Shown here: in pieces, positions 7,492-57,717 of the stretch
How the letters are laid out: each line of letters starts with the position of its first letter
How positions within the stretch are numbered: the first letter of the stretch is position 1
DNA from: a virus
Taxonomy: Duplodnaviria > Caudoviricetes
Length of the DNA stretch: 62,465 bases
IMG/VR virus record: IMGVR_UViG_3300048057_000022
Location: 1-62,465 of that record
Strand: one strand, 5' to 3'
Program-made: the position numbers and the translations under genes
Notes under the pieces: generated by a model
Told to the model about the DNA's origin: nothing
The model's input: the letters and a program-made list of their open reading frames with translations, nothing else
The model's database searches: none

Positions 7492-8094
7492 ATGAGTTAC
7501 GCCGACGAAATGGAACGTATGCGGGAGAGACTGGAAGAGCCGGAAGACACGAGGCTGGAGCGGGACGCCGACGAAGAGTACGAAACCCGGCATTTCGACA
7601 AGCTCGACGAGGCAAAGATGAGTGAGCGCGAGAAGGTGGCGTGGTGGCTACACGGCTGGCGTTTCTTTAAATGCACGGACGCACAGTGGACAGACTCAGT
7701 CAGGGATTCCATGCTTAAAATGGCCGACGAACTCCTCGCGCTTCTTGGCGATGGGGAGCCGGAGCCGGTGGCGTGGGCTATCACCTACGGAGGGGACATT
7801 GTGGGATTCTCCTCTAACCACATGGCCAGAGATCAAATTGAGTTCATCGGTCCCTGGGGAACCGTTGATCTCTTCGATCGCCCACCCACAGAGAGCCGGG
7901 AGCGGGAGGCGTTGGAGGAATTGGCGAAGTGTGGAGGCATCCTCAAGTTGGCTGCTCGTATCAACGAGGGCGATCCTCCATCGTGGGCCTACGTAGCACG
8001 AGGAAGGATTGGTGTAGGTTCATCACCAACCGAGGCCGTTCTGAGGTGGAAGGACGAACGCCGCGCAATCCTGGGAGGCAAAGATGATGAGTAA
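7492..8094 (+). CDS. mosaic accessory protein sharing short blocks with 57103-57717
   Basis: Shared blocks EREKVA, ADELLALL, PTESREREAL and ILGGKD. Confidence 0.7.
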   Translation: MSYADEMERMRERLEEPEDTRLERDADEEYETRHFDKLDEAKMSEREKVAWWLHGWRFFKCTDAQWTDSVRDSMLKMADELLALLGDGEPEPVAWAITYGGDIVGFSSNHMARDQIEFIGPWGTVDLFDRPPTESREREALEELAKCGGILKLAARINEGDPPSWAYVARGRIGVGSSPTEAVLRWKDERRAILGGKDDE

Positions 8095-8548
8095 ACCAAT
8101 CGGCTGGACCGACCCCGCCAACATTCCGTGCCCCGCTGGCAGCAGGCCGTTCTGGCCCACGCGGGAGGAGCCGACAGACGTGCCACTTTATGCAGAGGCC
8201 CAACCCGAGAGCCAGGAGCGGGAGGCGCTGGACCCCTATGAGGGGATCAAGCAACACAACTTCGGAGACGGCTATCACTGTCTGGATTGCGGAACCACCG
8301 TTGATGATGCGCCCGACCAGTTTTGCAAACCGAAGTACCTTCCTGGGTATCCGAAGGCCACCCCAGCGGTGCGGGAGGCGTTGACGGGTGTCACCGCCTA
8401 CCAGTGTCTCAATGGTGACTTGTACATCGTGACGGACGAAAACCTTATTGGGGCCGTCCATCATTTTTATCGCCGGTTCCCAGAACACACAGAGCAATTC
8501 GGACCACTAAAGCCGTTGACCATCCTGTCCGAAGGGGGTGAGAAGTGA
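8084..8548 (+). CDS. mosaic accessory protein
   Basis: Contains the ESQEREAL block and ends in the ILSEGGEK block. Confidence 0.65.
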   Translation: MMSKPIGWTDPANIPCPAGSRPFWPTREEPTDVPLYAEAQPESQEREALDPYEGIKQHNFGDGYHCLDCGTTVDDAPDQFCKPKYLPGYPKATPAVREALTGVTAYQCLNGDLYIVTDENLIGAVHHFYRRFPEHTEQFGPLKPLTILSEGGEK

Positions 8549-9040
8549 AGACGAGTGACCTGAAGCCGTGCCCGTTTTGCGGGACGACCCCAAACATCCG
8601 CCCGTGGCATGGCGGTGGACCCATGAAGCGCCTGGTGCGGTGTCGGGACGAAAACTGCCTCGTAGTGCCGATGGTTTCCGGAACTACGCGATCCAGAGCC
8701 ATCGCCGCTTGGAACCAACGAGCCACACCCCCCACCCCCAGCCGGGAGGGGAGGGCGCAAATCTTGGACGCCCTCAACCATGTAAAAGAGTACGAAACGA
8801 GGTATGACTTGGCGGCATCCATCCGCGCCATCCTGTCCGAAGGAGGTGAGAACGATGGCCCTTAGCGCAAAATGGCTTGAGCCTACCAACTGGATCGAGG
8901 TCCCATTCAATCTACGACCCGATTTTGTGGCCTATGTGCAAGTCCCCAAAGACCTCACCAGGGCCGAGGCCGAACGGCTGTCTGAGATGGTCCTGGCCTT
9001 GGGGCTTCCCAACGCCATCCTGTCCGAAGGGGGTGAGAAG
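8520..9040 (+). repeat. three gene-junction repeats CCATCCTGTCCGAAGG(G/A)GGTGAGAA
   Basis: Copies at 8520, 8828 and 9015; degenerate copy at 9376; each supplies the next gene's SD. Confidence 0.95.
8545..8865 (+). CDS. Lar-family restriction-alleviation-like zinc-finger protein
   Basis: LKPCPFCG...C...C...AIAAWNQR signature. Confidence 0.8.
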   Translation: MKTSDLKPCPFCGTTPNIRPWHGGGPMKRLVRCRDENCLVVPMVSGTTRSRAIAAWNQRATPPTPSREGRAQILDALNHVKEYETRYDLAASIRAILSEGGENDGP

Positions 9041-9052
9041 AATGGGAACTAA
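8855..9052 (+). CDS. hypothetical protein
   Basis: P.DLT..EAERL motif; flanked by junction repeats. Confidence 0.65.
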   Translation: MALSAKWLEPTNWIEVPFNLRPDFVAYVQVPKDLTRAEAERLSEMVLALGLPNAILSEGGEKNGN

Positions 9053-9371
9053 CTATTACCACCACATTGATGTCTGCGAGTGTTGTGGGCGAGCGGGTGA
9101 GGTGGTGCATGTCGGCAAGTCCTCTGCTGGCTGGACCTTCACGTTCCAGGGGACCGAAGAGATCAGGTCGTACCAAGATTGGCTGGATGCAATGGAGGCT
9201 GACCCCGCCAGTAAGATCCTAGATGAATACGGGAGGGAGATCTCACTGGAAGACTTCAAGGCAATCGTCGAATTAAAGCGGGACGAGAACCGCAACCATG
9301 CGAGGGACTACCCAGACGGCTCGTGGCTTGATCCTGATGGACACTCGTTTTCTGGGCATGATTTTTCATGA
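9042..9371 (+). CDS. hypothetical phage protein
   Basis: MGTNYY..CECCG..HVGKSSAGWTF..DEYG, a common phage small-protein pattern. Confidence 0.75.
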   Translation: MGTNYYHHIDVCECCGRAGEVVHVGKSSAGWTFTFQGTEEIRSYQDWLDAMEADPASKILDEYGREISLEDFKAIVELKRDENRNHARDYPDGSWLDPDGHSFSGHDFS

Positions 9372-9425
9372 AGCACCTATCCGAAGGCGGTGATGCGATG
9401 ACCCCCGGCCTGCTGGAGGCCAGAG

Positions 9426-9542
9426 ATGCCTCATGATGCCATCCTCCTGGTGGGGTTCACAGCTCTGATCTGGGGGGCCACCATCATCATGAGCTGGTGG
9501 TGCTCAGAGCACCTGAGAGACAATGAGGTAGACGATGATTAG
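9426..9542 (+). CDS. 38-aa single-TM peptide
   Basis: GGAGG SD; MPHDAILLVGFTALIWGATIIMSWW..; below the ORF-track cutoff. Confidence 0.45.
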   Translation: MPHDAILLVGFTALIWGATIIMSWWCSEHLRDNEVDDD

Positions 9543-9583
9543 TGACGAGACGGGTGCTTGGGAATGGTTGAGGGAGGTGCGAG

Positions 9584-9778
9584 ATGAATGCGCCATCTAA
9601 CGCTAAACGTAAGGCAACGCACAAAGTCCGTCCGGGCGGGCTGATGAGGTGCTGTAACCCGCAAACCATCCAAGATCGTATCGACGAGGACCGGCCACCC
9701 GAGGAAGGTGAGGTTCTGACGTGCTCGATCTGTGATGGCAAGATTATCTTTCGTGTGCTGGTGCTTGGGAATGGTTAA
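9584..9778 (+). CDS. small Cys-containing hypothetical protein
   Basis: GGLMRCC and CSIC motifs; bounded by junction repeats. Confidence 0.6.
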   Translation: MNAPSNAKRKATHKVRPGGLMRCCNPQTIQDRIDEDRPPEEGEVLTCSICDGKIIFRVLVLGNG

Positions 9779-9790
9779 GTGAGGTGCGAG

Positions 9791-10015
9791 ATGAAAGCTG
9801 AAGAGATGTTGGAGCGGATGGCGAGTAAGGCACTTGGGTATTATCACAGTCCCTACCCTGGAGGTGTCCCGACAGAAAACACCTTCAAGCCCAACCAACA
9901 CGGACTTAAAACCATCCAAGCCGCCCTACGGGAGTTGGTGGACAAGACGGTGGCTGACTATACGCCGGAAGATTTGGCCGCACTGTTGGTAGAGATCACG
10001 GAGCTAGAGCTATGA
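9791..10015 (+). CDS. hypothetical protein
   Basis: Start codon supplied by the junction repeat. Confidence 0.6.
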   Translation: MKAEEMLERMASKALGYYHSPYPGGVPTENTFKPNQHGLKTIQAALRELVDKTVADYTPEDLAALLVEITELEL

Positions 10016-10027
10016 GGGAGGTGCGAG

Positions 10028-10291
10028 ATGGGTAGTGCAATTTGCGGAGCGTACCTGCTCCAGGCTGATCTTCGGACCACGTTCTGTCCGACCTGCAAGA
10101 AGGACACCCTCAAACTCTGTCAATACTTCGAGTGGTACGGCCCAAGCGTGGTTTGCCTGGAGTGCGGCGAGCGGTGGGAAGGCGGCGAGCGGTTACCTCG
10201 ACCGTTCGCCCCAAAGTGGAGAGAGAAAAGTGTCGAGCGAGCCAGGAATAGAATGGCCGCACTCGACCTTAACGAGAAAGGAGAAGGCTAA
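10028..10291 (+). CDS. zinc-ribbon protein
   Basis: CPTC..EWYG..CLECGERW...PRPF. Confidence 0.7.
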   Translation: MGSAICGAYLLQADLRTTFCPTCKKDTLKLCQYFEWYGPSVVCLECGERWEGGERLPRPFAPKWREKSVERARNRMAALDLNEKGEG

Positions 10292-10346
10292 TGGTGAAAG
10301 TGCTTTTGATTCTTAGTATTGTCGCTCTGTTCGGGGCAGCAGAGTA

Positions 10347-10688
10347 ATGCCGGAGAGAGTGTTCGTGCTGGACATGCGTGGGGACTTGCCGGACGCGGGC
10401 GACCCTAGAGTTGCGATGGTGGATGAAATCAAGGACGCCATCCTAAACACCACCGACAGGGTGGTGGTCTACCCCGTGAGCGACGCCCTGGACGAGGAGA
10501 ACGCGGAAGACTTCAGGCTGCTCCTCGTCGCTATCGTGGGTGGCGTCAACCTTATCAAGCTCCTCTGCTTCTATCACGGGGTAGGGAGCCTGAGTGCGGA
10601 GGACTCCAAGAGGACCAAGAACGCCCTGTGCTTCCTGAACCAGAGGAACGTCGAGATCAGAAAGGCGGAGCCGTGGATGTTGGCCTAG
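10347..10688 (+). CDS. hypothetical protein
   Basis: ORF in operon. Confidence 0.6.
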   Translation: MPERVFVLDMRGDLPDAGDPRVAMVDEIKDAILNTTDRVVVYPVSDALDEENAEDFRLLLVAIVGGVNLIKLLCFYHGVGSLSAEDSKRTKNALCFLNQRNVEIRKAEPWMLA

Positions 10689-14594: not shown

Positions 14595-15031
14595 TGGGGG
14601 CCCCAAGGGACAAGGCGGCGATGGACGCAGTGGGGAAGTTCCTCGCCGCCTACCCGCCCCTTCATAATCCCTCACATGACACCGAACGCTATGCCGCTGA
14701 TAAGTTGGCCACGTTCGGCGCACTCAAGATACGCGAAATGTGCCTAATGATGTTGTACTCCAGAGGGGTCAGGGGGATGACGGGCGCAGAGGCGGTGAAG
14801 ATACTTCGCGGCTCGATCAATCGGTCGCTGAAGGAATCTACGGTGCGCACCCGGTTCACCGAATTGGTGGACATTGGTCTAGCTCGAAACTCAGACGAGC
14901 GCCGAGATAACGACAGCGGCAACCCGGAGATTGTGAGAGTGCTTCGCCCCGAAACCATTGCCGCACTGGATCAGCTCTCCCTTATTTCCACCGTACTCAC
15001 GGGCGTCTCACCGGAGGGTTGGGAAGAGTGA
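14594..15031 (+). CDS. winged-helix DNA-binding protein
   Basis: GMTGAE...STVRTRFTELVDIGLA..S.ERR...G pattern. Confidence 0.65.
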   Translation: MGAPRDKAAMDAVGKFLAAYPPLHNPSHDTERYAADKLATFGALKIREMCLMMLYSRGVRGMTGAEAVKILRGSINRSLKESTVRTRFTELVDIGLARNSDERRDNDSGNPEIVRVLRPETIAALDQLSLISTVLTGVSPEGWEE

Positions 15032-15372
15032 GGGCCTGGATCGGAGTAGACTTGGACGGCACCCTGGCGGAGTACCACGGCTGGCAGGGCGTAGACCATG
15101 TCGGCCCACCCATACCAAAGATGCTAGAACGGGTGAAGGGCTGGATCAAGGCTGGCAAGGAAGTCCGCATCTTCACGGCCAGGGTTGGTCCCCAGCCTGA
15201 CGATGTGAACGTACACTACGTACGCAGCGTTATCCGGAGTTGGTGCGAGAAGCACGTTGGCTGCGCCCTGACGGTCACCGCGACCAAGGACTTCAGCATG
15301 GTCGAACTCTGGGACGATCGGTGCGTTCAGGTGATACCGAATACAGGAGAACGGGTCGATGGGAAAGACTGA
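15028..15372 (+). CDS. HAD-superfamily phosphatase (phage PNKP-phosphatase-like)
   Basis: DLDGTL, IFTAR, K and WDD motifs. Confidence 0.85.
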   Translation: MRAWIGVDLDGTLAEYHGWQGVDHVGPPIPKMLERVKGWIKAGKEVRIFTARVGPQPDDVNVHYVRSVIRSWCEKHVGCALTVTATKDFSMVELWDDRCVQVIPNTGERVDGKD

Positions 15373-16168
15373 AGTAACGGGACGAGAAGGCGCCCTCGCG
15401 GCGATACTGGAGGAGCGGCCCTCGTGGGCCAACAACCTTATCCTGGCCGGGATTCGCGGGTCTGACGCCCATGGCACGAAGCTCCCACCGTATCACCCGA
15501 TGGCCACGGACGACACCGACACCTTTGGTGTCTCAGTCCAGACAACGGACTGGTACCTGGGCCTAGGGGGTTACCACAACTCCGGGCGGCAGCATTGGGA
15601 CACGGCTGGCGACGACTACGACCATCTGATCTACGACGTGCGGAATCTGTTTGGCCTGCTCTCCAAGGGAAACCCTAACGTCCAAGGCTGGCTGTGGTCG
15701 GAGCCAGAGGACCACCTCCTGGTGACGGGTCCGGGGCGGCTGATCCTAGAGAATCGGAAGCTATTCCTCTCCAGGGCGTGCATCAAGGCCCTGACCGGCT
15801 ACGCCTACGCCCAGATGAAGAAGATGGACAAGTCCCAGTACCAAGGATACATGGGCGAGAAGCGGAAGAGGATCGTCGATAAGATGGGTTATGACGTCAA
15901 GCACGCGGCCCACTGCGTCCGGCTCCTCCAGATGGGCATCGAACTAATGGAAACGGGAGAGATGCGAACCCGGAGGCCAGCCGACGAAGCCGAGACTTTG
16001 AAGGACATTAAAGCCGGGGAGTGGGGGTTTAGGGATGCCGAAGCACTGATCCAAGTCCTCTGGGACAGAAGCCGAGAGCGTGAGGGCGATCTTGACCTAC
16101 CCGACTTGCCCGACAGGGACACCGTGAACGACCTGCTGGTTCACGTTATTTCCTGGGCCAACAAATGA
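15359..16168 (+). CDS. DNA polymerase beta-superfamily nucleotidyltransferase (YcgL/RlaP-like)
   Basis: GS.AHGT..DDTD, KGNPN, GYA..Q and GYDVKHAAH.VRLL motifs. Confidence 0.85.
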   Translation: MGKTEVTGREGALAAILEERPSWANNLILAGIRGSDAHGTKLPPYHPMATDDTDTFGVSVQTTDWYLGLGGYHNSGRQHWDTAGDDYDHLIYDVRNLFGLLSKGNPNVQGWLWSEPEDHLLVTGPGRLILENRKLFLSRACIKALTGYAYAQMKKMDKSQYQGYMGEKRKRIVDKMGYDVKHAAHCVRLLQMGIELMETGEMRTRRPADEAETLKDIKAGEWGFRDAEALIQVLWDRSREREGDLDLPDLPDRDTVNDLLVHVISWANK

Positions 16169-16377
16169 TGGGCACGTTGAATCGAGATGTTGACGTACCG
16201 TCGTCTCGTCCCGGCACCATGATGCACGTCCCCAAGGGAACCAGGGTAGGGTTGATCTGGTGGATCACTATCGACACCCGGCCACCCACGAAAGGCGCCG
16301 TAGTTGAAACTGACTTCGGCGCAGAACTTTGTGTTCCAGGTGGGACCGTTGACTGGGACCTCCCATCACTGTTATAA
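16165..16377 (+). CDS. hypothetical protein
   Basis: ATGA overlap with the upstream gene. Confidence 0.45.
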   Translation: MMGTLNRDVDVPSSRPGTMMHVPKGTRVGLIWWITIDTRPPTKGAVVETDFGAELCVPGGTVDWDLPSLL

Positions 16378-16385
16378 TTATAACA
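16349..16385 (+). promoter_or_regulatory. recombinase promoter overlapped by a perfect 16-bp palindrome
   Basis: TTGACT-N18-TATAAT; TGTTATAATTATAACA at 16370-16385. Confidence 0.75.
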
Positions 16386-16397: not shown

Positions 16398-17579
16398 ATG
16401 GGGGAAGAAATGTTTGGGCCATCTGAGATCAGGGAGCGAATTCAAGGGGACAAGGACCCGATGCGACGAGCGATAGCTTACCTAAGCTACGCTGGCCTCG
16501 GTGCCGGGGAGATCCACCGACTCGGGTGGAACTCGATGCAGGCACAGTCAGTAAGGTTACCACGACCCTCTGACAGTCACGGTCTGGGGATCAGTTACGA
16601 CCAGGCGAGGGCGCTGCTTTCTTCTGTGGAGGAGGCCGGGAACCTCCGGGATCAGATCATCGTGGAGGCCGGGCTGGCGTGCGGGCTGCGACAGATCGAG
16701 CTTCGGCGCCTCCTGATCGTGGACATTCAACGCAGGAACGGCCGGATGTTCCTGTCCGTTAAGGGGAAGGGGGGAGGCAGGCGGGTTGTGTATGTTCCTA
16801 GGCCCCTCCAGGAACGGATCACCCGCCTTGTGACTAGCGGTGAGCGCTACCTAAAACGAACCAAGACGGTCGGCGGTTCTCACCCTAGTCGCCCCCTCTT
16901 CCAGTCCTACACTGGTGGGCCCCTCTCCGAATGTGGGATGAGGCGCATCATCAACCGCCATCTGAAGAAGGTGGCCCCCGACGCTACGGCCCACGGACTG
17001 AGGCACACCTGCGTCACCTGGCTCCTGAATAGCGGCGCGACCCTGGAGCAGGCCATGGAGATCGCGGGCCACACTGAGGCCGGTAGTCACGAACTCTATG
17101 CGGCTGCCGGCGGCGACTGGTTCGTGGGGGCCTGGAGAAAGGCTCATCCGATCGCACAGTGGGGGGTCGGTGTGGGATACGCCCACGTTGCCGGGAGAGA
17201 GTACACTCGTCGCATGTCCAGGGGCACCGAGAGGGTGGTGCCCGTCCCCACGGAGATAGTAAGCGCCGTCCTTGCGGGCTTTCACGAGGGAGGGCTCCCG
17301 AGGGACACCGTGTCCAAGAAAATGATGGCCTGGATCTTCAGCGACCTGGACTACGACCCGTCGATGCTACGGAAGGCTGGGGCCATTCACATGGCAGAGG
17401 CCGGGGCGCACCCGTTCCTAATTTCCCTGGTCCTGGGGGTCACTCCCGGCTATGTGGTGGACAGCAAGTTCGATAGGATGGGGCCGAAGGCCGAGGAGGA
17501 GAGGGTGGACGCCATCGAGCGGGCCTGTGAGCGCCTCTATGAGGCCGAGAACGTTGACCTAGAGCTTAGGTCGGCCTAA
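16398..17579 (+). CDS. tyrosine recombinase (XerC/D-like catalytic domain nested in a degenerate second copy)
   Basis: Intact CGLRQIE, KGKGG, HGLRH, AGH and LY; flanks AGLGAGEI and PSMLRKAGAIHM..AGA...ISLVLG. Confidence 0.85.
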   Translation: MGEEMFGPSEIRERIQGDKDPMRRAIAYLSYAGLGAGEIHRLGWNSMQAQSVRLPRPSDSHGLGISYDQARALLSSVEEAGNLRDQIIVEAGLACGLRQIELRRLLIVDIQRRNGRMFLSVKGKGGGRRVVYVPRPLQERITRLVTSGERYLKRTKTVGGSHPSRPLFQSYTGGPLSECGMRRIINRHLKKVAPDATAHGLRHTCVTWLLNSGATLEQAMEIAGHTEAGSHELYAAAGGDWFVGAWRKAHPIAQWGVGVGYAHVAGREYTRRMSRGTERVVPVPTEIVSAVLAGFHEGGLPRDTVSKKMMAWIFSDLDYDPSMLRKAGAIHMAEAGAHPFLISLVLGVTPGYVVDSKFDRMGPKAEEERVDAIERACERLYEAENVDLELRSA

Positions 17580-19946: not shown

Positions 19947-21272
19947 TTAGGAGGCGTTTTCGACGGCCTGCTGGGGCTGGTAAAGCTCCCATAGCACCCT
20001 CTTTAGGTCGTTCTCCGCCTTCCTCGCAGTGATCCCCGCGCTGAGTCTCATCCCCACAAACTCCTGGGTCTGTTCGGACACCTTCGGGGCGTACTTTCTG
20101 AGGTACTTGGTGAGGGTGGCCAGGGCCTCGTCCTCGCCCATGTCTTGGACCGAGTTCATGATCTTGGCGTGCAGCGCCTTCGCCTCCTCCTTCCAGGCGT
20201 TCGCGTCCACCACCACCTCCTCCTCCTCCTCGGCCGGCCCCCCCCCTTCCCCCGAGTCGGCCGCATCGCCCGGCTTGTCGGCGCTATTCTCGGCGTCCCA
20301 ATACTCACGAGATAGTTTTTCACTCTCCTCGACGGCAGCGACAAACTCGGGGCCTTCGCTCTCCCCCTCGGCACCCACGACCTCGTAGTCTGCGTCCAGG
20401 GCAACGCCAAGCTCCTCCTTCAGTGTATCGAGCGTCTCTTGGCTCTGGACCGACGCCTCGACGCCCTCCTCCGGGAAGAACTCGCCCGCGATGTCCTCGA
20501 CCTCCTCTAGGTCGCGCTCTTGCTGGTCCTTCAGCACCTCCCCAGCGAGAAGCCTTAGTTCTCCCCTGGCCAGGTCCAGTTGACGCTTGGAGTCCACCAT
20601 CCTCATTGCCGCGTCTTCGAGGGACATGGCCAACACGAGGCCAACCTTCCAGGACGTGCTGACTAGTGCCTTGCCGCCGTCCTTGTATTGGTCCTCAGAC
20701 GGGTACATCACGAGTTTGACGGGAGCCTGGAAGAGGGTACCGAACCGCTCAAATATCTCCTGGAGGGCGGTCTGAATGTTGTTTACCGACTCCCAGGAGG
20801 TCGTGCGGAAAGTGTGGTAGCCCATGACGTGGCCCGACGCCCACAACTGAAGATGAAGGCGACCGTAGGGCTTACATGGGCATTCACCACCCTCCAGCTT
20901 CTTGCATGGCGTGGCCTTCCCGCTCCCCAGTTCGGTTCGCACCTCGCCGTCACAGGTAGACTCTTTCTTGGTCTTCCCTTTATAGAAGGCCATCTCGGAA
21001 TGGAAGTTCTCCTCCGGCGTCTCGTACATGAGCACGCCAGCAAGCTCCAGGGGGCTATCGCCAACGTCGGGGTGGCTGTGGACGGCGTCGTCCCTGACGA
21101 AGTTGCCGTCAGCGCCGCGTGCCCTGGACGTCACCTGGAAGTGGTCGTACTTAACGGGCAGTTGGTACTTCACGCCCCCCTGTCCCGCCCTTTCCGCCCC
21201 CTTCCCGCCGATCTTGATCTTCCCTAGCTCCTGTGGACGACGCTTCAGCATCTTCCTACTAATGAGAGCCAT
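19947..21272 (-). CDS. Gp3-like (recombination-directionality-factor-like) protein with acidic C-terminal extension
   Basis: ELGKIKIG.K..P.K.DHF.VT, CDG, C.CKP.GRL, G...FRTTSW.S motifs; adjacent to YqaJ. Confidence 0.7.
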   Translation of the reverse strand: MALISRKMLKRRPQELGKIKIGGKGAERAGQGGVKYQLPVKYDHFQVTSRARGADGNFVRDDAVHSHPDVGDSPLELAGVLMYETPEENFHSEMAFYKGKTKKESTCDGEVRTELGSGKATPCKKLEGGECPCKPYGRLHLQLWASGHVMGYHTFRTTSWESVNNIQTALQEIFERFGTLFQAPVKLVMYPSEDQYKDGGKALVSTSWKVGLVLAMSLEDAAMRMVDSKRQLDLARGELRLLAGEVLKDQQERDLEEVEDIAGEFFPEEGVEASVQSQETLDTLKEELGVALDADYEVVGAEGESEGPEFVAAVEESEKLSREYWDAENSADKPGDAADSGEGGGPAEEEEEVVVDANAWKEEAKALHAKIMNSVQDMGEDEALATLTKYLRKYAPKVSEQTQEFVGMRLSAGITARKAENDLKRVLWELYQPQQAVENAS

Positions 21273-22387
21273 TAGAATTCCTCCGGGTTTGGTGCGAACA
21301 CGTCTACCTTAACCTTCTCGCTGGTAGCAGTGCTGTACTTGAAATCGTCTGAGTCTGGGTCCAGGAACTTCAGCGCCCGGAGGTCCATCCTCCTCTGCGC
21401 GAGCTTATAGGCGGCACGGAATTTCTTCCAGTCCGTCCTACGTTGGGACGCGGTACTTTTTCGGGTCACCTTCACACCGTTACCGGCGACGTGCTGGTCC
21501 CCCTCGCCAAGCAGCGCCACCAGCTTCTCTTCCGACTCGGTTCGGATCTCCTCCGCCTCTATGGCCTCGTAGTGCTTCTGAATCAGGACAGAGGACCACA
21601 TCATCCACTCCTCGTCGTCCCGAACTGTAGCCTCCCCAGGGATGGGGTCTGGCCACTTGGCCGGAGGTGGCGCCTCTCTCTCTGGGCGCACTTCTTTGTC
21701 TACGTGCTGCTCCAACCACTCGTTGGCAGATTTCAGCAGCCACGCACAAAAATCCCAGTCCGTCAGGACCGGGAAGGCGACCAGGTCATCGTACTCTGGG
21801 GTGTAGAAAGAGAAGAAGCCCCAGTCTAGGCCCGTGACGAGGCCGTGGGTCTGCGCCTGGATGATGTGAGCGCGGGGCAGCCCCTCTTCCTTGAACCGAT
21901 AGAAGCGTGGGATTCTCGGCACCTTCAGTTCCATCCAGCCGTGGCCGGAGAACTTGGTCACGGGGCTCCACAACTCCGACTCCCTCACGGCCTCTGGCCA
22001 CTTCCCCTCGCCAGGGTTGATGACGAGCCCGTCCGTATCGGTGACGATCCTCGGATTGTCCGGGTGGTGAACCATCGGCAGGGCTATGGCTTCGAGGCCC
22101 GTGCGCTCCACAAACGTCTGCCGTGCAATCTTCTCCTGTTTGATCCCACGGCGTATGTCCCCGCCTTCCGCGTCATCCCAATCGCCGAGAACAATCCGGT
22201 CCCAGATGTTCCACGGCTCCCGGTACTCGTCCTGTCCGAAGATCGCTGGCATGTCCGAAGATCCAAGGCACGGCCTACGCGCCACCTTCCACGCCTCCCG
22301 GTTCACCATCGGGTTCACCTGGTTACCACGGCCGTCCCTTACAATACGCCTCAGCAGTTCTCCTGCTGGATGGGCTGCGTCACTCAC
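21272..22387 (-). CDS. YqaJ/lambda-exonuclease-family 5'-3' exonuclease
   Basis: W..ARR..LGSSD, RG...E, DTDG, ELK and QAQ motifs. Confidence 0.85.
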   Translation of the reverse strand: MSDAAHPAGELLRRIVRDGRGNQVNPMVNREAWKVARRPCLGSSDMPAIFGQDEYREPWNIWDRIVLGDWDDAEGGDIRRGIKQEKIARQTFVERTGLEAIALPMVHHPDNPRIVTDTDGLVINPGEGKWPEAVRESELWSPVTKFSGHGWMELKVPRIPRFYRFKEEGLPRAHIIQAQTHGLVTGLDWGFFSFYTPEYDDLVAFPVLTDWDFCAWLLKSANEWLEQHVDKEVRPEREAPPPAKWPDPIPGEATVRDDEEWMMWSSVLIQKHYEAIEAEEIRTESEEKLVALLGEGDQHVAGNGVKVTRKSTASQRRTDWKKFRAAYKLAQRRMDLRALKFLDPDSDDFKYSTATSEKVKVDVFAPNPEEF

Positions 22388-25632: not shown

Positions 25633-28305
25633 TCAACTCATAATCCCATTGGCCACCAGGGCCGCCCTCATTGCTACCACCATGGCATGCAGGGCGCTCA
25701 TGTTAGCCCCGCTGTCTAGTCCATTTGCCCCGGCTCCATAGGCCGCTAGGGCACCCCCGGAGGCGTAGGCCGTTTGGGGTGATGCGGCATTACAGCCAAA
25801 CGCACCGACCACCTCCAAAGCGTCATCGGTCTTCAAAACGTCAGCCGCGCCCCGATACAGGTTCGTGTCGCCAGCCGCACCGAAAACCAGCTTGGCGGCA
25901 TTAGCCCGGATGCGGACCTCAGTGATAGTGGAACCGCCGAGGGCGACCTGGTAGCTGGCGTCTGTGTAGGAGTGGGCCCCGATGGCCGTGGAGTCAATCG
26001 CGTCCACCTTCTGGTTCACGGCGTCGAACCCAGCATAGTAGCCCAAGAACGTGTTGTAATTGCCGGAAGTGAGGGTCCTGCCAGCGTTGTGCCCAACGCC
26101 CACCACCCCCGTGGCTGAAATAGCCTCAAAGGACTGTACTCCAACGGCGATGTTGTTTTTGCCCGTAACATTCGAACCCAAAGCCAGGTAGCCGAGGGCG
26201 ACGTTGGAGCCCCCCTCAGTCAAGGAGTCCAAGGCATCCCGCCCGAGGGCGATGTTGTTTCCTCCAGTAGTACACTCTCCCAAGGCGCTCAAGCCGATGC
26301 CGACGTTGTAGTCGCCGTCCGTCAGGTCGTAGAGGGCACTTGGACCGATGCCGACATTCGAGCTTCCCGTGACGACGCCGAGGCCCATGGCGTTGTAGCC
26401 CACGGCCACATTGTTGCTTCCGGTCGTGAGGTTGGCCGAGGCTCCGTATCCCATGGCGAAATTGCGAAAGCCGCTCGTGACATCGTCCATCGCCTGGTAA
26501 CCGATGGCCGTGTTGTTGTCTCCGGTTGCGATGCCGGTTCCCATGGCTTTATAGCCGATGGCGGTAGAGTTATTGGCCTCCGTCAGGTTCGTGGCCGCAT
26601 AGCTCCCAATGGCGGTGTTCCGGGCTCCCGTGGTGAGGTCTTGGAGGGCCTGGTAGCCGAAGGCGTGGTTGTCGTCACTCTCTACCGCTCCCCCACTCAT
26701 GGCCTGGTAGCCCACGGCCATCGTTCGTCCTGCGGCATCGACCACGTTCTGCATGGCCTGGTAGCCAATGGCGATCCGACCATTGGCCGTGGTGATGGCC
26801 TGAAGGGTTTGGTAGCCGATGGCTACGTTGTAGTCACCCGTGGTGAGGGCTCCAAGGGCACCCTGTCCGACCGCAGTGTTGAAGCTGCCAGTGGTCAGGA
26901 CATCAAGGGTGTACGCCCCAACGGCTACGTTCCTGTCCCCCTCGGTACAAGCTGAGAGCGCGTTGACTCCCAACGCCATGTTGTATATGCCGGTCGTGGT
27001 CCCATCCAGGGCACCTGTCCCCACGCCCAGGGAGTTTGCATCTGCGGCCAACCCCTTCCAGATCCAGATGTCTCCGAGGACTTTCAGCGCATCGTCGGTG
27101 GCCAAGACGTCCGCCGCGCCCCGATACAGGTTCGTGTCGCCAGCCGCACCGAAGACGAGCTTCGCCGAGTCTGAACGAAAGCGGACCTCGGTGATGCTGA
27201 GATTCCCGAGTACCACCTGATTCGAGGCGTCAGTGTAGGCCGCGTACCCGATTCCAGTGGAGTTGGCGGCAGTCACTAACTGGCTGGCCTGATTTCCAGC
27301 ATCGTAGCCGATGAAGACGTTCTGACTCCCAGTCGTGAGATCCATCCCGGCCTGGTAACCAAAGGCTGCGTTCCCGTCTCCGGTAGCTACCGTCAGGGTG
27401 GACGTACCGATGGCTACGTTGTTGTTACAGTCCGTGCCCGTACCGAGAGCCGAGGTACCGATAGCAAGGTTGTTTGCTCCGGTGGTAAGTTGCTTCCCTG
27501 AATTGGCTCCCATCCCGGCGTTGTTGTACCCGGACGTCACGTCCTGGAGGGCGCGAAAACCGACCGCCGTATTTGAGTTGCCGGTCACCACCCCCTGCAA
27601 GGTCTGGTAACCGACTGCGGTTAGGGCGTACCCACCGTTGTCGTTATTGAGCGCGCCGCCTCCCAGAACCGTATTTCGGTACTCTTCGTTATTCCCGCTC
27701 CCAACCGTTACCCCATTTACATTGATGTCATCCGTGAAGATGAAGGCCCCGGCAGGGAAGGTTCCGGCTCCGACGTCTGCGGCTGTGATGGCCCCGCCGC
27801 CTCCGCTTTGGTCTACCCAGGCCAAGGCTCCGCCAGAGACGCCCAGGACCTTGTCGTTCGCCCCAATGGCCAACGCAGCAAGACTGTCCGCACCGTCAGC
27901 ATAGAGGAGGTCGCCCTCGGTCACTGTGGTCAGCCCAGTGCCTCCCTGGTCCACGGCGACGGTCGTACCTTCCCAGACCCCCGTCCCGATAGTCCCAAGC
28001 GTTGTGAGGGCCCCTGAGCCCGTCCAGTTGGGCAGAGAGCCGTCCTTGATGAGCAGGCTGTCTACGGTCACGCCCGAACCTGGGGTAGCCTCATCTATCG
28101 CATCAGCCTTCAGGCCGTTCAGAAGCGTGAGTAAGGGGGTAATCTCCCATGCCGCAGCACCGAAGTCGCCTTTCTTCACGCCACCAATACTCAGCCCCAC
28201 GTTATCCGCACCGATCCGATAGAAACCAGTATCCGGGTCGTCCACGTAGGTATACGCTGGCGCGTCTACCGCTCCGTCCAGGGTCTGGACCTTAAAGTCT
28301 GTCAT
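25633..28305 (-). CDS. tail fibre/spike with beta-roll (G..N.A.G..AL) repeats
   Basis: Many 14-aa NxAxGxxAL repeats; DPDTGFYR and VDQGGTG fibre motifs; 41-bp internal duplication (25844 and 27113). Confidence 0.8.
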   Translation of the reverse strand: MTDFKVQTLDGAVDAPAYTYVDDPDTGFYRIGADNVGLSIGGVKKGDFGAAAWEITPLLTLLNGLKADAIDEATPGSGVTVDSLLIKDGSLPNWTGSGALTTLGTIGTGVWEGTTVAVDQGGTGLTTVTEGDLLYADGADSLAALAIGANDKVLGVSGGALAWVDQSGGGGAITAADVGAGTFPAGAFIFTDDINVNGVTVGSGNNEEYRNTVLGGGALNNDNGGYALTAVGYQTLQGVVTGNSNTAVGFRALQDVTSGYNNAGMGANSGKQLTTGANNLAIGTSALGTGTDCNNNVAIGTSTLTVATGDGNAAFGYQAGMDLTTGSQNVFIGYDAGNQASQLVTAANSTGIGYAAYTDASNQVVLGNLSITEVRFRSDSAKLVFGAAGDTNLYRGAADVLATDDALKVLGDIWIWKGLAADANSLGVGTGALDGTTTGIYNMALGVNALSACTEGDRNVAVGAYTLDVLTTGSFNTAVGQGALGALTTGDYNVAIGYQTLQAITTANGRIAIGYQAMQNVVDAAGRTMAVGYQAMSGGAVESDDNHAFGYQALQDLTTGARNTAIGSYAATNLTEANNSTAIGYKAMGTGIATGDNNTAIGYQAMDDVTSGFRNFAMGYGASANLTTGSNNVAVGYNAMGLGVVTGSSNVGIGPSALYDLTDGDYNVGIGLSALGECTTGGNNIALGRDALDSLTEGGSNVALGYLALGSNVTGKNNIAVGVQSFEAISATGVVGVGHNAGRTLTSGNYNTFLGYYAGFDAVNQKVDAIDSTAIGAHSYTDASYQVALGGSTITEVRIRANAAKLVFGAAGDTNLYRGAADVLKTDDALEVVGAFGCNAASPQTAYASGGALAAYGAGANGLDSGANMSALHAMVVAMRAALVANGIMS

Positions 28306-28338
28306 CGTAGGCCCCTCTTCCTTTCCTGGTGCCCTAAA

Positions 28339-32446: not shown

Positions 32447-32842
32447 TTAGGATTCAGGCATGGTCACCGTAAACGCGGTCACCGTGACGACTCCACCAGC
32501 CACGATCGAAGAGTCGTCAAAGCTCAAGTCCCCCGAACCCTGTCCGCAGGACCCATCTAGGCGATACGTGTCGCCCGCATCCCTCAATCTGAACCAGGTT
32601 GTGGTACCAGAGGCGTTGGCGCTCGCGTCCTGCCAGGTGCCGTTCTTAGCTACCGCACCTGCCGCTGCGGCACCAAAGGCCGTGGCTGGCAGGGTGATGC
32701 TCGCAAGCAGCGACCCGGATGCGGCCGTGTCGGCGTCAGCGGGCTGCGCCCCGTCTCTGACCTCCAGGACCCCGCTGTCAAAGAACGCGGCGAACGCATC
32801 TGCGAGGGCGTTTACAACGCTGGTGTCAACTCTTACCGTCAT
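32447..32842 (-). CDS. conserved small virion structural protein
   Basis: G.QPADAD.AASG.LLA.ITL...AFG.A..G..A.ASGT.TWFR..DGS.G...GDL..D pattern. Confidence 0.75.
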   Translation of the reverse strand: MTVRVDTSVVNALADAFAAFFDSGVLEVRDGAQPADADTAASGSLLASITLPATAFGAAAAGAVAKNGTWQDASANASGTTTWFRLRDAGDTYRLDGSCGQGSGDLSFDDSSIVAGGVVTVTAFTVTMPES

Positions 32843-32915
32843 GATTCCCCTCCTGGGGTTGGGTCAACTCTTACCGTCATGATTCCCCTCCTGGGGTTGG
32901 GTCAACTCTTCCGTC
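32825..32915. repeat. 38-bp tandem duplication of an SD/start region (2 full copies plus a partial third)
   Basis: GTCAACTCTTACCGTCATGATTCCCCTCCTGGGGTTGG at 32825 and 32863; partial copy at 32901. Confidence 0.95.
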
Positions 32916-48906: not shown

Positions 48907-50013
48907 TTAAGTGATGTCGGGCACAGCATAGGCACCGGCATCAACAAATCCGACCGCCGCCGAGATCCGGTTGTAGCAACCGAACCCGTAGAAGTCCACC
49001 CAATAGGAATCCTTGAGCGGGAACTCCCTGTCGTCGAACCGATGGATGCCCCTGAGAGCGGCCTCCTTCGGCACTCGCCGACGCAGCGGTGCAAAAGCGT
49101 TCCTCTGGCCAGGCTTTTCAACGGTGCTGGCGAACCCGATGTAATAATTGTCAGGCAACCACGGCACTTCGCGAATCCAGACCTTGGAGGCGCTGTTCCA
49201 CCCGAGGTACCTGTCGCCATCGACCTTCGCCCAGATTTTGTTGATGTCGGACACCATCTGGTCGTTGGCTTTGATGTGGTTCGTGAAGGCAATGACCGTT
49301 GACTTCAGGTTGGTGGGAATCCATACCTCGATGTGCCCACCGTAGCCACCGATGGACCGCGCTTCACCGAACCCATGCTCCCGGATCTCGGTGGCGAGGA
49401 GGGTTAGGTCGGCCTCATCAAAAGGCGTCCCATTGGCCATGTGGTGGTCGTGGGTACCGTCGAACGAGTTCCCCTGCCAAGGCGGAGGCGTGTAGTCAGC
49501 GTCGTTGCCAACCAGCGGCTTGACGGCGAGGTCCCCGTCCTCCTGGAAGAGGGTGTCGCTCCAGGTGTAGGCAGTGTTGCTAAACAATGCCCGCAGAGCG
49601 CCCTTGTAGAGGCCCATGAGGTGTCCACTCATGATCTCTTCAAAGGTGTTCAGAAGCTCCATGTTCGTGGCCTTCGCCAGGTAGTCGTAGCTCCAGCCGC
49701 TCCGCATCTCGTACTTGTAGATCGGGTACCCGACCCCAGTGAGGCCAGATACCTTCCGACGCCTGGGACGGCCCGTCTCGGTGGCGTCTTCCCACTCACC
49801 GATCTCGTTGTGCTGTCCGATAAGAGCAGCACGATCAGTGGTGGTAATGGCGAGCCCGCCAAGAATTAGGTCCGTAGCAGCGTTGCGTGCCTCCTGTCTC
49901 GCATCAATCATCTCGCGGATTCTCTCACGAGACAACTTCTCAATGTCCATCCCCTGGACAGTACCGCCGAGAAGATCCGGGGACAGGTGGATTCCATAAG
50001 ACGTGTCAGCCAT
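48907..50013 (-). CDS. major capsid protein
   Basis: 368 aa; follows scaffold and decoration genes; PP.WQG..FDGTH.H, REHG and YGFG..NR..A motifs. Confidence 0.75.
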   Translation of the reverse strand: MADTSYGIHLSPDLLGGTVQGMDIEKLSRERIREMIDARQEARNAATDLILGGLAITTTDRAALIGQHNEIGEWEDATETGRPRRRKVSGLTGVGYPIYKYEMRSGWSYDYLAKATNMELLNTFEEIMSGHLMGLYKGALRALFSNTAYTWSDTLFQEDGDLAVKPLVGNDADYTPPPWQGNSFDGTHDHHMANGTPFDEADLTLLATEIREHGFGEARSIGGYGGHIEVWIPTNLKSTVIAFTNHIKANDQMVSDINKIWAKVDGDRYLGWNSASKVWIREVPWLPDNYYIGFASTVEKPGQRNAFAPLRRRVPKEAALRGIHRFDDREFPLKDSYWVDFYGFGCYNRISAAVGFVDAGAYAVPDIT

Positions 50014-50032
50014 GGTAATCTATCCTTTCCCC

Positions 50033-50881
50033 TTACAGGCTAGGCATGGCAAGCTCGATCTGCGTGGCGTTGATGGCCACTCCGATCGCCTTGCCGTTCT
50101 TGGTTCCTGCTACACCGTCGTAGAAATCGGCGGTGAGGCAGTCTGACGCATCGGTCATGTCATCGGTGTTCGCCGTCCAGGCCGAATCAGCTTTGGCGTT
50201 GATCGTGATGTAGCCGAGTGCGGCCTTATCAGCGTCAGCGGCGGGCAGTGCGGCGACCGCGAGTGCCTCCGAAGCATATACCTGGTCGGCGAGTCCACCG
50301 GCAGCCTTGGTGCTGACTGTACCGGAGATGTTCACCTGAACCAGCCATGCGCCCCAGAAATCACCTGTTGCGGGAGCCACATTGATGGTATCGGCCAGCG
50401 TGAACGTAATGTTGTCCGCAGCGGCCTTGGTAGCGGGCACCCCGTTGATAACGAACTCAGCGGTGGTGGTCGTCTTGAACTTCGTCGCGTCGGCCCCGGA
50501 AATAAGCAGGGTGCCGATGCTCACGAGCCCGTCCTCTGGATCTCCGTCAGCGATCGCGCCCGCAGTCAGCGAGTTATAGAGAACCGTTCCGGCCGTGAGG
50601 CCGGTAAAGCCCTCCATGATCCCACGCTTCCTTACGGTGACACGATAGCCCGCGCCCCCAGCGGTCGTCCTGACTGCCTTGAACGACTCTACCATTCCAA
50701 ACGGGTTAGAGAGCCCGCTGGAGAGAGCCGCGTCGCAAAGATCGACTTCGTCGTTTCCAGACACGGCGACGATCTTCCCGGCAGTGGGGGTGAAACCAGA
50801 GGCGGCATCCATCGTTGTAACCTCAGACGCAGCGCCTTCTACGGCACGCACCGAGGCTGCAACAACAGTAATGTCAGCCAT
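50033..50881 (-). CDS. head decoration / capsid cement protein
   Basis: Lies between scaffold and capsid; GLTAG..LY.S.TAG.I and IGVAI motifs with an inserted domain. Confidence 0.65.
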   Translation of the reverse strand: MADITVVAASVRAVEGAASEVTTMDAASGFTPTAGKIVAVSGNDEVDLCDAALSSGLSNPFGMVESFKAVRTTAGGAGYRVTVRKRGIMEGFTGLTAGTVLYNSLTAGAIADGDPEDGLVSIGTLLISGADATKFKTTTTAEFVINGVPATKAAADNITFTLADTINVAPATGDFWGAWLVQVNISGTVSTKAAGGLADQVYASEALAVAALPAADADKAALGYITINAKADSAWTANTDDMTDASDCLTADFYDGVAGTKNGKAIGVAINATQIELAMPSL

Positions 50882-55649: not shown

Positions 55650-56421
55650 GCCGCATCTTTCTGAGTATGTCAATTCGCTCCCCGTCGGTGATCTCGCCCG
55701 CCTCGTACCGATCCTCGACCGCCTCCTCTGCCTTGGTCCTAGATTGAGAGCGGACCTGGTCGGACGGGGTCCCAAGCAGTCTCGAAACGTCCTCGCTACT
55801 CATGAGTTGGTCGAAATACTTCATGTGGCGGTCTATGCTCTTATCGAGAGCGCTAATACGAGTCTCGCGCTCCCGCATCTTTACTCGCTTCAGCCCGTAA
55901 ACCTTGTGAATCTGCTGGCGGTAAAACTCAAGCATCCGGGCTCGGTAGATCAACCTAGCGGAGCCGGACACCAGCGGAGAGTACACCTCGACTGCGTCCA
56001 AAATGTCGGCGTGAATGGCCTCAACTATCTTCCTATGAGGCACAATGACCTTTGCTTGATATGAGTGGCGTGCGCGGTCGGGTGGCTCCTCCCCCGCATC
56101 GACCCTGCGCCGGGAAAGCTCGTCGGCGATGTCTGGAAAAGACACGCCGATGGCCCGACCCAGGATTACCAACGCCTTCTCTTCGGTGGACAGCATGTTG
56201 CACTGCTTGGCCCCAGGGGGGAGCCCGCGATTCCTGCGAATCTCCTGGCCCACCCTCTGCCCCACGGCAGCCACGTACTCGTAGATCTGCTCAATCGGGG
56301 CCTCGAAAGGCACAATCCCAGTGGCGACGAAGATGTTCTCCTCGCCTGGGTCACGCATTACGGCCGGGAGTACGGGCACGTCCTCCATGGAAACCAGTTT
56401 ACCGCCGACCGCTCGCCTCAT
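55633..56421 (-). CDS. HTH-containing protein, candidate terminase small subunit
   Basis: GVSFPDIADEL HTH-like segment, helical C-terminus, two genes upstream of terL. Confidence 0.45.
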   Translation of the reverse strand: MRRAVGGKLVSMEDVPVLPAVMRDPGEENIFVATGIVPFEAPIEQIYEYVAAVGQRVGQEIRRNRGLPPGAKQCNMLSTEEKALVILGRAIGVSFPDIADELSRRRVDAGEEPPDRARHSYQAKVIVPHRKIVEAIHADILDAVEVYSPLVSGSARLIYRARMLEFYRQQIHKVYGLKRVKMRERETRISALDKSIDRHMKYFDQLMSSEDVSRLLGTPSDQVRSQSRTKAEEAVEDRYEAGEITDGERIDILRKMRHGELK

Positions 56422-56435
56422 GGTTCCTCCTCGTG

Positions 56436-56756
56436 CTAGTGCCTAGGGCGACGAATGTGTGGCTTACCGGGAAGGGCTAGGTCCACCTTCCCGCGTTCGG
56501 CCTTCTCCATCGCCTCCATCGCCTCCGCCCGCTCCTCGGCCACCTCGGCATCGTACATGCGCTTAACGATCACAGCATAGTTTGGCGCACACCAGAGCTT
56601 CAGGAGATCGAAAGATTCCTTCGCGGTAAACCCTTCCTCCACAAACGAGTCCCTCATCCTCATCGACATCTTGGCCACCTGCTCGCCCAAGCTACCGGGG
56701 CTCTTGTCCTCCGTGGGACCGTCCTCCGTAGGAATGTCCCTCTCGTCTTCCTGCAT
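56436..56756 (-). CDS. hypothetical protein
   Basis: FVEEGFT..ESF.L motif. Confidence 0.6.
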   Translation of the reverse strand: MQEDERDIPTEDGPTEDKSPGSLGEQVAKMSMRMRDSFVEEGFTAKESFDLLKLWCAPNYAVIVKRMYDAEVAEERAEAMEAMEKAERGKVDLALPGKPHIRRPRH

Positions 56757-56757
56757 A

Positions 56758-56991
56758 TTACGCTCTCCTTTTAACGAAAAATACCCTCATGCCGCCAGGA
56801 CTCTTCCTGGTCACAGCACGAAGGTCAAGGTGTTGATTCCTCGACATCCAAGTCCGTGCGGCCCTAGCAGCCCTCTCCCCCTCCTCCGGGTCCTCGAACA
56901 AGAACTCCTCGGGCGGACTGATGCCTCTCAGCGCCCACGGATACTTGCGGTACCCCTCGGGCGGAATCACCATCGTATCCTTCTTTTTCAT
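56758..56991 (-). CDS. small basic DNA-binding-like protein, paralogue of 58316-58594
   Basis: KYPW...F....W..RN...TRK..GG.RV. Confidence 0.65.
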   Translation of the reverse strand: MKKKDTMVIPPEGYRKYPWALRGISPPEEFLFEDPEEGERAARAARTWMSRNQHLDLRAVTRKSPGGMRVFFVKRRA

Positions 56992-57011
56992 GATACTTCC
57001 TCCTACCGAAC

Positions 57012-57040
57012 ACCATAACCAGCCACGAAGCGTGACACAA
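57012..57040 (-). promoter_or_regulatory. candidate promoter for the packaging/structural arm
   Basis: TTGTGT-N17-TATGGT on the minus strand, in an intergenic gap. Confidence 0.4.
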
Positions 57041-57102
57041 GGGTATAAAAAAACGCCCGTGGAGAATCGTTCCTGAGAGCGTTCAGTGGTCCTACAATCC
57101 CT

Positions 57103-57717
57103 TCAGCACTCATCTTTGCCTCCCAGGATGACAGTTATGTCTTCCATGTCTTGGTTGAACAATGCTCGCTCGGCGTCCGTGAGTCTGTCGGAAAGACCTC
57201 GCCTCCACATTCTGATACGACCTAGCATTACGGGCACCTCCCACTCGTTCTCACTCATCTTCCGGCTCTCGCTGGGTGCGAGGTATTCCGGGTGCTCTCT
57301 GAGGATTCGCTCGACCTCGGCCCATACCTTTGCTTCAGAGTCTAGGGCCCTGGGAATCCCGGCATGACAAAGCGTGTCCGTGATGGTGTTGCGGATAATG
57401 GTGCGAAGTTCCAGCGCCTCCCGCTCCTGGCTCTCTGTGGGTGCTGCAAGGTAAAGCTCCTGCCCTGGCTTGAAGTCCGGCGAGTGCAGATAGAGCTTAA
57501 CGACCATTTCCCCGACGTCTTGATAGCCAAGAACTTCCCCCACCGGCTCCCCTGGCTGAAGCAGTGCGAGGAGTTCGTCGGCCAGCGACAAGAACTCACC
57601 CTGGCAAACGTCGTCCCAGTCAGCGGCCAATAATTCACCGCCCTCCTTGACTTGATTGTCGTGCCCACGTTTCCATGCTGCATGTAGCCCTCTCGCCACC
57701 CTTTCGCGCTCAATCAC
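57103..57717 (-). CDS. mosaic accessory protein sharing blocks with 7492-8548
   Basis: Nucleotide-level shared blocks of 19, 34 and 20 bp. Confidence 0.7.
   Translation of the reverse strand: MIERERVARGLHAAWKRGHDNQVKEGGELLAADWDDVCQGEFLSLADELLALLQPGEPVGEVLGYQDVGEMVVKLYLHSPDFKPGQELYLAAPTESQEREALELRTIIRNTITDTLCHAGIPRALDSEAKVWAEVERILREHPEYLAPSESRKMSENEWEVPVMLGRIRMWRRGLSDRLTDAERALFNQDMEDITVILGGKDEC

Follow-up and report, generated by a model that had tools for sequence, protein, structure and literature searches.

Genes A and B share four short blocks of DNA

We analysed a stretch of 62,465 bases, hereafter called the window, which is one complete record of an uncultivated sediment phage of the Caudoviricetes (IMGVR_UViG_3300048057_000022; CheckV 100%, no end repeats) with a GC content of 59.5%. 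It contains two genes, A and B, that code for small acidic proteins and have in common four ordered, same-frame blocks of DNA. A third gene, C, follows A and carries a further copy of one of these blocks. The genes and blocks are as follows (nt, nucleotides; aa, amino acids; pI, isoelectric point).

7492–8094, plus strand: gene A, 200 aa, acidic, pI 4.66
57103–57717, minus strand: gene B, 204 aa, acidic, pI 4.74
8084–8548, plus strand: gene C, 154 aa, with the third linker copy at 8207–8232 and a degenerate copy at 8369–8383
7624–7641, plus strand: block 1 in A, start of helix 1; partner in B at 57694–57711, 16/18 identical
7721–7770, plus strand: block 2 in A, where helix 2 ends and the chain turns towards the beta module; 19/19 identical to 57566–57584
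7883–7916, plus strand: block 3 in A, in-frame linker and predicted helix start; 32/34 identical to 57410–57443
57410–57443, minus strand: block 3 in B; its left 15 nt equal the copy in A and its right 26 nt the copy in C
8068–8087, plus strand: block 4 in A; the final codons of A here contain a Shine-Dalgarno-like run, which a spacer of 5 nt separates from the gene C start codon (ATG at 8084)
57003–57129, minus strand: block 4 in B (57110–57129), then a 36-codon open frame starting at 57113
7609–7624, plus strand: internal copy of the junction core in A; it precedes an ATG at 7618–7620, and the N-terminus of the protein family described below begins here

In gene A, a 42-aa extension precedes the N-terminal two-helix domain of this family, after which a small beta module leads through the linker to a C-terminal module. 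Gene B has an A-type N-terminal domain, a low-confidence beta module, the linker and an all-helical C-terminal module that is unlike that of A. The family N-terminal domain common to A and B is missing from gene C. Two uncultivated relatives of the phage were found by terminase, G001 (81% identical) and G002 (76%). The pI was 4.7–5.0 in the five proteins examined, namely A, B, C, the G001 member of the family and a G002 protein.

An earlier note on this DNA had described ordered blocks in A and B with unrelated sequence between them, and the alignments bear this out. Among the 57 inverted exact matches of at least 14 nt in the window, five of the eight longest join A or C to B. These inverted matches measure 26 nt (57410–57435 = 8207–8232), 20 nt (57110–57129 = 8068–8087), 19 nt (57566–57584 = 7721–7739), 16 nt (57107–57122 = 7609–7624) and 15 nt (57429–57443 = 7883–7897). 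Global alignment of the three inter-block intervals gave z values of 0.78, 1.96 and −0.40 for DNA (81, 7 and 204 of 300 shuffles reached the observed score) and 1.64, 0.79 and −0.58 for protein. The inter-block sequence is thus no better aligned than shuffled sequence, save for a marginal DNA signal in the second interval.

The 26-nt linker, searched with two degenerate positions, occurs three times (7891, 8207 and, on the minus strand, 57410), with zero matches in 100 shuffles. A 13-nt junction core likewise occurs three times (7609, 8075 and, on the minus strand, 57110) against 0.06 expected. An exact scan of other viral contigs with the 26-nt and 20-nt blocks gave 0 matches. The recurrence of the linker (as ESQEREAL) at 8207–8232, reported earlier, is the third copy, in gene C. 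Degenerate copies had also been claimed at three places; the one near 8360 was recovered (8369–8383, one mismatch in 15), but those near 8735 and 57260 were not among the 18 matches at up to three mismatches.

The junction-core copy at 7609 had been taken to mark a gene fusion, and the starts of the related proteins fit a fusion-like joint: every other family member starts at residue 43 of A or within about eight residues of it. As this is near the ATG at 7618, A is either a fusion of a 42-codon upstream frame with the family gene or a gene with two starts.

The separation of 50 kilobases (kb) given earlier for the two genes is an artefact of where the record was cut. The genes that adjoin the two ends of the window are contiguous in G002, and the ends of G002 itself fall within the counterpart of window 1.4–4.4 kb. 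The record is therefore circularly permuted, and A and B are biologically about 12 kb apart rather than 50 kb. Counted across the record ends, their starts lie 12,240 bases apart, in two divergent early operons.

Blocks 1 and 2 are conserved motifs of an N-terminal domain

We built a profile from the N-terminal parts of A, B and the G001 protein and searched it against 1.84 billion representatives. Eleven proteins matched at an expectation value (E) of 1e-3 or below. We regard nine as credible, namely A, B, the G001 protein and six further proteins; the remaining two, long repeat proteins matched in 9–10 short stretches, were dropped. The credible members are small (95–419 residues), and their nine invariant alignment columns all fall in block 1, in block 2 or in the three residues after block 2.

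AlphaFold models, which rest on a shallow alignment, placed the same N-terminal helix hairpin in A and B, with no long coiled coil. The hairpin had block-mean pLDDT (predicted local distance difference test) values of 84–92 in A and 81–90 in B, except for one loop block of B at 58. The confidence of the whole models was low (mean pLDDT 67.7 for A and 60.1 for B; predicted template modelling score 0.36 and 0.32). The predicted C-termini differ, with two strands and a helix in A and four helices in B. Because the invariant columns sit in blocks 1 and 2 and a shared hairpin is predicted, we regard these two blocks as conserved motifs of a single domain. The first of the seemingly unrelated intervals is a variable loop region of this domain and not a separate module.

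Annotation searches returned little. A Pfam scan (E ≤ 0.1) of A, B and seven other proteins of the family or of the G001 record gave no match, DUF551 (PF04448) included, which was a weak feature-space neighbour (0.76); an atlas search gave weak neighbours only (0.83), and a PHROG search with A and B gave no match. Word-based protein searches with A, B and the G002 protein each retrieved the query itself only, and protein searches of G001 and G002 with A and B found no match. The G001 homologue (L007, G001 49803–50576) surfaced solely through a blastn match to a 35-nt stretch inside block 2 of A, which is 91% identical to G001.

Locus searches by pattern were confirmed as follows: none of 54 matches for alignment A2 in viral contigs, none of 108 for alignment A3 in genomes, none of 31 and 4 for the related proteins P0005 and P0006 in viral contigs, and two of at least 596 for alignment A3 in metagenomes (L012 and L013, by tblastn). 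We judged both of these unrelated. The matching frame in L012 overlaps several other long open frames, which lie on both strands, and capsid/protease-like genes come after it, and L013 is another type of small protein that has in common only the second-helix motif. The family to which A and B belong is small and had not been named before; its members are acidic early proteins from a group of temperate phages.

Several of these data are consistent with A and B being plain old paralogues, the blocks being residues under purifying selection at which no recombination took place. Blocks 1 and 2 hold motifs that do not vary within the family, the same helix hairpin is predicted in both proteins, and BLASTP aligns residues 43–143 of A with residues 1–103 of B (34% identity, E 9e-10). 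The marginal DNA likeness of the second inter-block stretch (z 1.96; 7/300 shuffles) points the same way.

The same codons are used in the blocks far more often than expected

Identical residues in the blocks of A and B are encoded by the same codon at 28 of 34 positions. Codon usage predicted 13.5, and none of 200,000 simulations reached 28. Several of the matched codons are minor codons. Core orthologues of the window and G001 or G002 use the same codon at 46–63% of positions (13 comparisons; 40–43% expected). As this share is close to expectation, the window, G001 and G002 are near synonymous saturation. Because the codon identity of the A/B blocks lies far above that of these orthologues, the blocks must be much younger as DNA than the split from the nearest relatives. 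Young blocks with unalignable sequence between them therefore point to recent exchange that was confined to, or bounded by, the blocks.

Purifying selection on old paralogues does not account well for this excess over core orthologues or for the rare codons common to the blocks of A and B. It also leaves aside three other observations: the C-terminal modules are of unequal length (blocks 3 and 4 lie 50 residues apart in A and 93 in B) and of different predicted secondary structure; the linker occurs in gene C as well, which has no family N-terminal domain; and crossovers inside blocks are seen in wild contigs (below). We consider plain paralogy an unlikely explanation, although it retains more credit than the other alternatives weighed below.

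Block 3 is an in-frame linker, and block 4 and two further junction families precede start codons

Block 3 follows the short beta module and begins a predicted helix; as an in-frame linker it is found in three genes here (A, B and C). Its 19-nt core at 7893–7911 is identical to G002 4122–4140. Block 4 holds the putative ribosome-binding site and the start codon for the gene that follows: gene C in the case of A, and the 36-codon frame in that of B. Two further families of repeated junctions, J2 and J3, lie downstream of gene C, among the following features.

8520–8545, plus strand: J2 copy 1, end of C together with the start codon (GTG) of the Lar-like gene and its ribosome-binding site
8545–8865, plus strand: Lar-like restriction-alleviation gene (PF14354, 33.6 bits, cut-off 28.6; phrog_599)
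8826–8852, plus strand: J2 copy 2, left crossover site of the X11 deletion (below)
8855–9052, plus strand: small gene, 65 aa, missing from the X11 contig and apparently replaced in X3
9013–9040, plus strand: J2 copy 3, right crossover site of the X11 deletion and ribosome-binding site for a gene starting at 9042
9553–10030, plus strand: J3, with copies at 9553–9588, 9760–9795 and 10011–10030, one ahead of the start of each of three consecutive small genes

Block 4, J2 and J3 each lie 4–6 nt upstream of a start codon. A Shine-Dalgarno-like run 4–9 nt before a start that overlaps or abuts the upstream stop, as is found at these junctions, suggests translational coupling. A Shine-Dalgarno-like 5-mer at the usual distance was present at 27 of 39 hand-picked starts. 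The longest stretch common to the four blocks is 7 nt at most and corresponds to this Shine-Dalgarno-like run. With so little in common, the blocks offer a site-specific enzyme no shared core.

As block 4, J2 and J3 clearly act at the RNA level as ribosome-binding sites, blocks 1–3 might also have been kept for some other role as nucleic acid, for example as the target of a regulator, as part of an RNA structure or as an internal site of ribosome binding or pausing; the linker has a Shine-Dalgarno-like run of 7 nt in common with block 4. The positions of the start codons speak against this. B has none at a usable distance after the G-rich run of the linker, the only candidate in A lies 2 nt after that run, and the nearby ATG in C is out of frame. 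In addition, blocks 1–3 have no motif in common. We regard such a role as improbable.

Relatives combine the modules differently

The protein searches indicate that the genes are mosaic, as proposed earlier. The match of A to P0005 is confined to the beta module (30/42 residues, 71%; E 5e-23); P0005 has a different loop in its N-terminal domain and an extra coiled-coil-like insert. The match of A to P0006 is confined to the N-terminal domain (31/56, 55%; E 2e-16), and P0006 then continues into other modules, which are separated by a different repeated linker also used by the G001 member. The point at which the similarity of A switches between P0005 and P0006 is block 2. In the G002 protein the N-terminal domain is absent, whereas the beta module, linker and end junction are all present. 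Its likeness to B is limited to the linker, with no further significant match (E 0.17).

Relatives keep their module types in one order: domain, beta module, linker, tail, junction. Module content varies and parts are sometimes missing, so relatives do not show the fixed set of modules that would have spoken against the earlier proposal.

The other short linker, found in the G001 member (L007) and in P0006, is present in four to five copies between modules. This suggests that each lineage may have its own preferred joint.

Wild contigs carry crossovers inside the blocks

The A region, whole or in part, is present in twelve public runs, all of them sediment, aquatic or groundwater metagenomes; the data are contigs only, which cannot show rare forms or absences, and the uncovered parts of X10–X12 are uninformative. 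We aligned four runs to window 5400–10400 at 80% likeness. Two of the four joints listed are clean.

The first is in a contig of X10 (722 nt, depth 5.2), which connects 7688–7898 directly to 8215–8725, and 13 nt at the joint fit both sides. As both sides of this linker-to-linker deletion are in frame, its product would be an A::C chimeric protein. The second is in X11, where 8730–8825 runs on in frame into 9013–9107 in a contig of 191 nt (depth 4), with 18 nt that fit both sides. By this deletion, from one J2 copy to another, exactly one gene is lost, the small gene at 8855–9052. Contigs also depart from the window sequence at junction blocks, namely X3 after 8850 and X10 after 8061 and before 9016.

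The two other joints were rejected. The X3 joint (7916 to 8068, with loose ends at 7883 and 8087) is the contig of gene B itself aligned on the blocks of A, with the flanks of B being read. The X12 joint, with a side of 22 nt at low likeness, comes from contigs of other organisms.

Farther along the same region, the contigs of three runs all leave the window sequence after 10304, with two different continuations. The window holds an 18-codon hydrophobic frame at 10291–10347, and given this divergence of the contigs the stretch is a further candidate variable joint.

Probable recent exchange at short blocks

We conclude that A and B are probably mosaic genes that have been reshuffled by recent, homology-driven exchange at short blocks, a form of boundary-sequence mosaicism. 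The blocks, their common frame, the protein family, the excess codon identity and the two wild recombinant contigs with crossovers inside blocks were observed directly. Both genes would run from a shared N-terminal domain through a short beta module and an in-frame linker into unrelated C-terminal modules, and each would end in block 4, the putative ribosome-binding site and start of a translationally coupled gene that follows. That the blocks are nearly identical would be due to recent exchange at short sequences and not to protein constraint alone, and the exchange could take the form of crossovers, short gene-conversion tracts or deletions between repeats. As the blocks are read in the same frame everywhere, its products would be intact chimeric proteins or clean gains and losses of cassettes.

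Candidates for carrying out these events are the exonuclease, the Gp3-like protein and the single-strand binding protein of the phage, or replication slippage. The first two, named in the earlier note as the YqaJ/Gp3-like system, are indeed encoded.

19947–22387, minus strand: recombination genes, a YqaJ/RecE-like exonuclease (21272–22387) and a Pfam Gp3-like protein (19947–21272)
59882–60457, minus strand: single-strand DNA-binding protein, in the same leftward early operon as gene B

RecT and ERF were searched for in the window proteins and not found; the partner of the exonuclease here is the Gp3-like protein and not RecT, ERF or Red-beta.

Several points weigh against recent exchange at the blocks. 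A or B and the G001 homologue use the same codon at 19/34 positions (56%), which is the background level, so the blocks are not conserved as DNA across the family, and selection on mRNA could in part explain the excess codon identity between A and B. Reassortment among the six other family members is seen at the protein level only. Each recombinant is a single short contig of depth 4–5 from one run and might derive from chimeric library molecules; the contigs were presumably built with 31-letter words, and an assembly jump across 13–18 shared bases is hence not expected. Neither the protein searches nor the contigs of the four runs contained an A/B chimera. The catalyst proposed above is suggested by the genes that are present.

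The proposal that the blocks serve as in-frame recombination joints thus holds in part. Crossovers lie inside blocks and one of them yields a chimeric protein, but blocks 1 and 2 lie within one domain and do not mark its borders, and block 4 is a putative ribosome-binding site and start. Nothing in the data indicates that the joints are kept for the sake of recombination.

A stronger form of the idea would have the linkers and junction blocks held identical by selection as joints. The early operons would then be a cassette system without a dedicated recombinase, in which the exonuclease/Gp3-like pair stitches modules and small genes together in frame, and inversion between A and B could swap C-termini and downstream genes at any of the four blocks. 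We give this little credence, about as little as a nucleic-acid role for blocks 1–3.

Comparison with known systems

Lambdoid boundary sequences are short conserved stretches of DNA at module junctions (Susskind & Botstein 1978; Clark et al. 2001, on HK620; both cited in passages of PMC3029335), which according to the same passages can be identified at few mosaic junctions. As in those sequences, conserved short DNA here flanks unrelated modules, and many of the sites are gene junctions in early operons. Boundary sequences were proposed there as crossover sites of general recombination; crossovers are seen here, in single contigs. In contrast to the lambdoid case, three of the four A/B blocks are intragenic and in frame, two of them within one domain, and the phage has no relationship to lambdoid coliphages (below 25% identity for the best match to its terminase among cultured phages). 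We found short shared DNA with unrelated flanks, crossovers inside it and differing combinations of modules, the features that characterise boundary-sequence mosaicism.

The Ea22 genes of lambda and Stx phages are described (PMC10834534) as mosaic, with a common N-terminal part and unrelated C-terminal domains. A and B resemble them as acidic early-operon proteins that have a common N-terminal part and vary between related phages. The N-terminal unit of A and B, unlike that of Ea22, is a predicted two-helix hairpin without a long coiled coil, and the lack of a Pfam match at E ≤ 0.1 places A and B outside the Ead/Ea22 signature family. The locus works like known boundary-sequence and Ea22 mosaicism, in an unrelated phage group.

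Divergence-tolerant phage recombinases are held to feed mosaicism (Martinsohn et al. 2008, PMC2327257). The phage studied here resembles that situation in that it encodes its own exonuclease-based module and its crossovers fall in short stretches of identity. It differs in that the partner of the exonuclease is Gp3-like, with a putative annealing role, and in that the identity tracts are very short (13 and 18 nt). Homeologous recombination driven by phage recombinases was also, reportedly, treated as a source of mosaicism by De Paepe et al. in 2014 (PMC3945230).

Shufflons and invertible segments of the Gin/Cin type swap protein C-termini. A and B invite the comparison: their blocks are in frame, in the same order and mutually inverted in two divergent early operons, so that inversion could in principle exchange C-termini. 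The blocks could therefore be maintained as joints of a selected or programmed diversification device, shufflon- or cassette-like, possibly with an A/B inversion that swaps C-termini together with the downstream operons. The three junction families with three copies each (one including a partial copy), the existence of natural recombinants at blocks, and a linker core carried unchanged by a phage with core genes close to synonymous saturation are in keeping with such a device. However, searches of the window proteins for the Resolvase family (serine invertases) and for RVT_1 (reverse transcriptases) gave no match, and the sole site-specific recombinase found in the window is an ordinary integrase-family protein, with no sites matching it. 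The repeats also differ from those of a shufflon: with at most 7 nt in common they offer no recombinase core site, and the contigs of the four runs contain no inversion product and no A/B chimera. Both recombinants are plain deletions between direct repeats, which are possible with any repeat.

Diversity-generating retroelements differ in the reverse transcriptase, absent here, and in their repeats; those of the window are 13–34 nt long, identical and not adenine-mutated. We consider a programmed device the least probable of the alternatives. The locus is not a dedicated or undescribed diversification system, as the earlier note had proposed; it fits boundary-sequence and Ea22 mosaicism.

The interest of the locus is that short shared stretches, excess synonymous identity, differing combinations of modules in relatives and wild crossovers are visible together in one compact case, with a wild recombinant that encodes an in-frame chimeric protein. 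The population evidence is unusually direct, and the mechanism itself is not new. The new, unnamed family of acidic early proteins beside a Lar-like gene offers candidates for host take-over or anti-defence. Being early, acidic, variable and next to that gene, proteins of the A/B type might act as such factors; the shared N-terminal hairpin might serve assembly and the variable tail might set target specificity.

Other features of the phage record

Plus-strand genes span about 0–17.6 kb and include those for a DUF932 protein, the Lar-like protein, RNA-repair-like proteins and the integrase. The rest of the window holds minus-strand genes, among them a RuvC-like resolvase, a DnaB-type helicase, a DnaD-like loader, the Gp3-like protein, the YqaJ/RecE-like exonuclease, an endolysin, structural genes and the large terminase. 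Small early genes, including the single-strand binding protein, form a block upstream of the terminase. The best-covering terminase match among cultured phages has 24.9% identity, and all 734 matching records are below 60%.

A 25-nt exact inverted repeat flanks the record ends (252–276 and 61383–61407), between the two divergent early operons, and may represent paired operator or promoter elements. Dense tandem repeat arrays, poorly coding, lie between early genes at 3433–4153 (an 11-nt unit repeated 9.7 times at 3668–3776, and an 18–20-nt unit repeated four times at 4075–4153); from the repeats this stretch looks iteron/origin-like or regulatory. A perfect 16-nt AT-rich palindrome at 16370–16385, just upstream of the integrase gene (16398–17579), may be a promoter/operator or part of an attachment region.

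An adjoining polynucleotide-kinase-like gene (phrog_415) and RlaP-family nucleotidyltransferase gene (PF10127) at 15019–16168 form an RNA-repair-like pair, which possibly counters host defences that cleave tRNA. Between structural genes, at 32825–32915, lie 2.4 copies of a 38-nt unit, with 98% identity. Two large minus-strand genes at 25633–30990 (890 and 883 aa) contain many internal repeats of 14–41 nt and cross-match G001 and G002 repeatedly, as expected of repeat-rich tail-fibre-like proteins.

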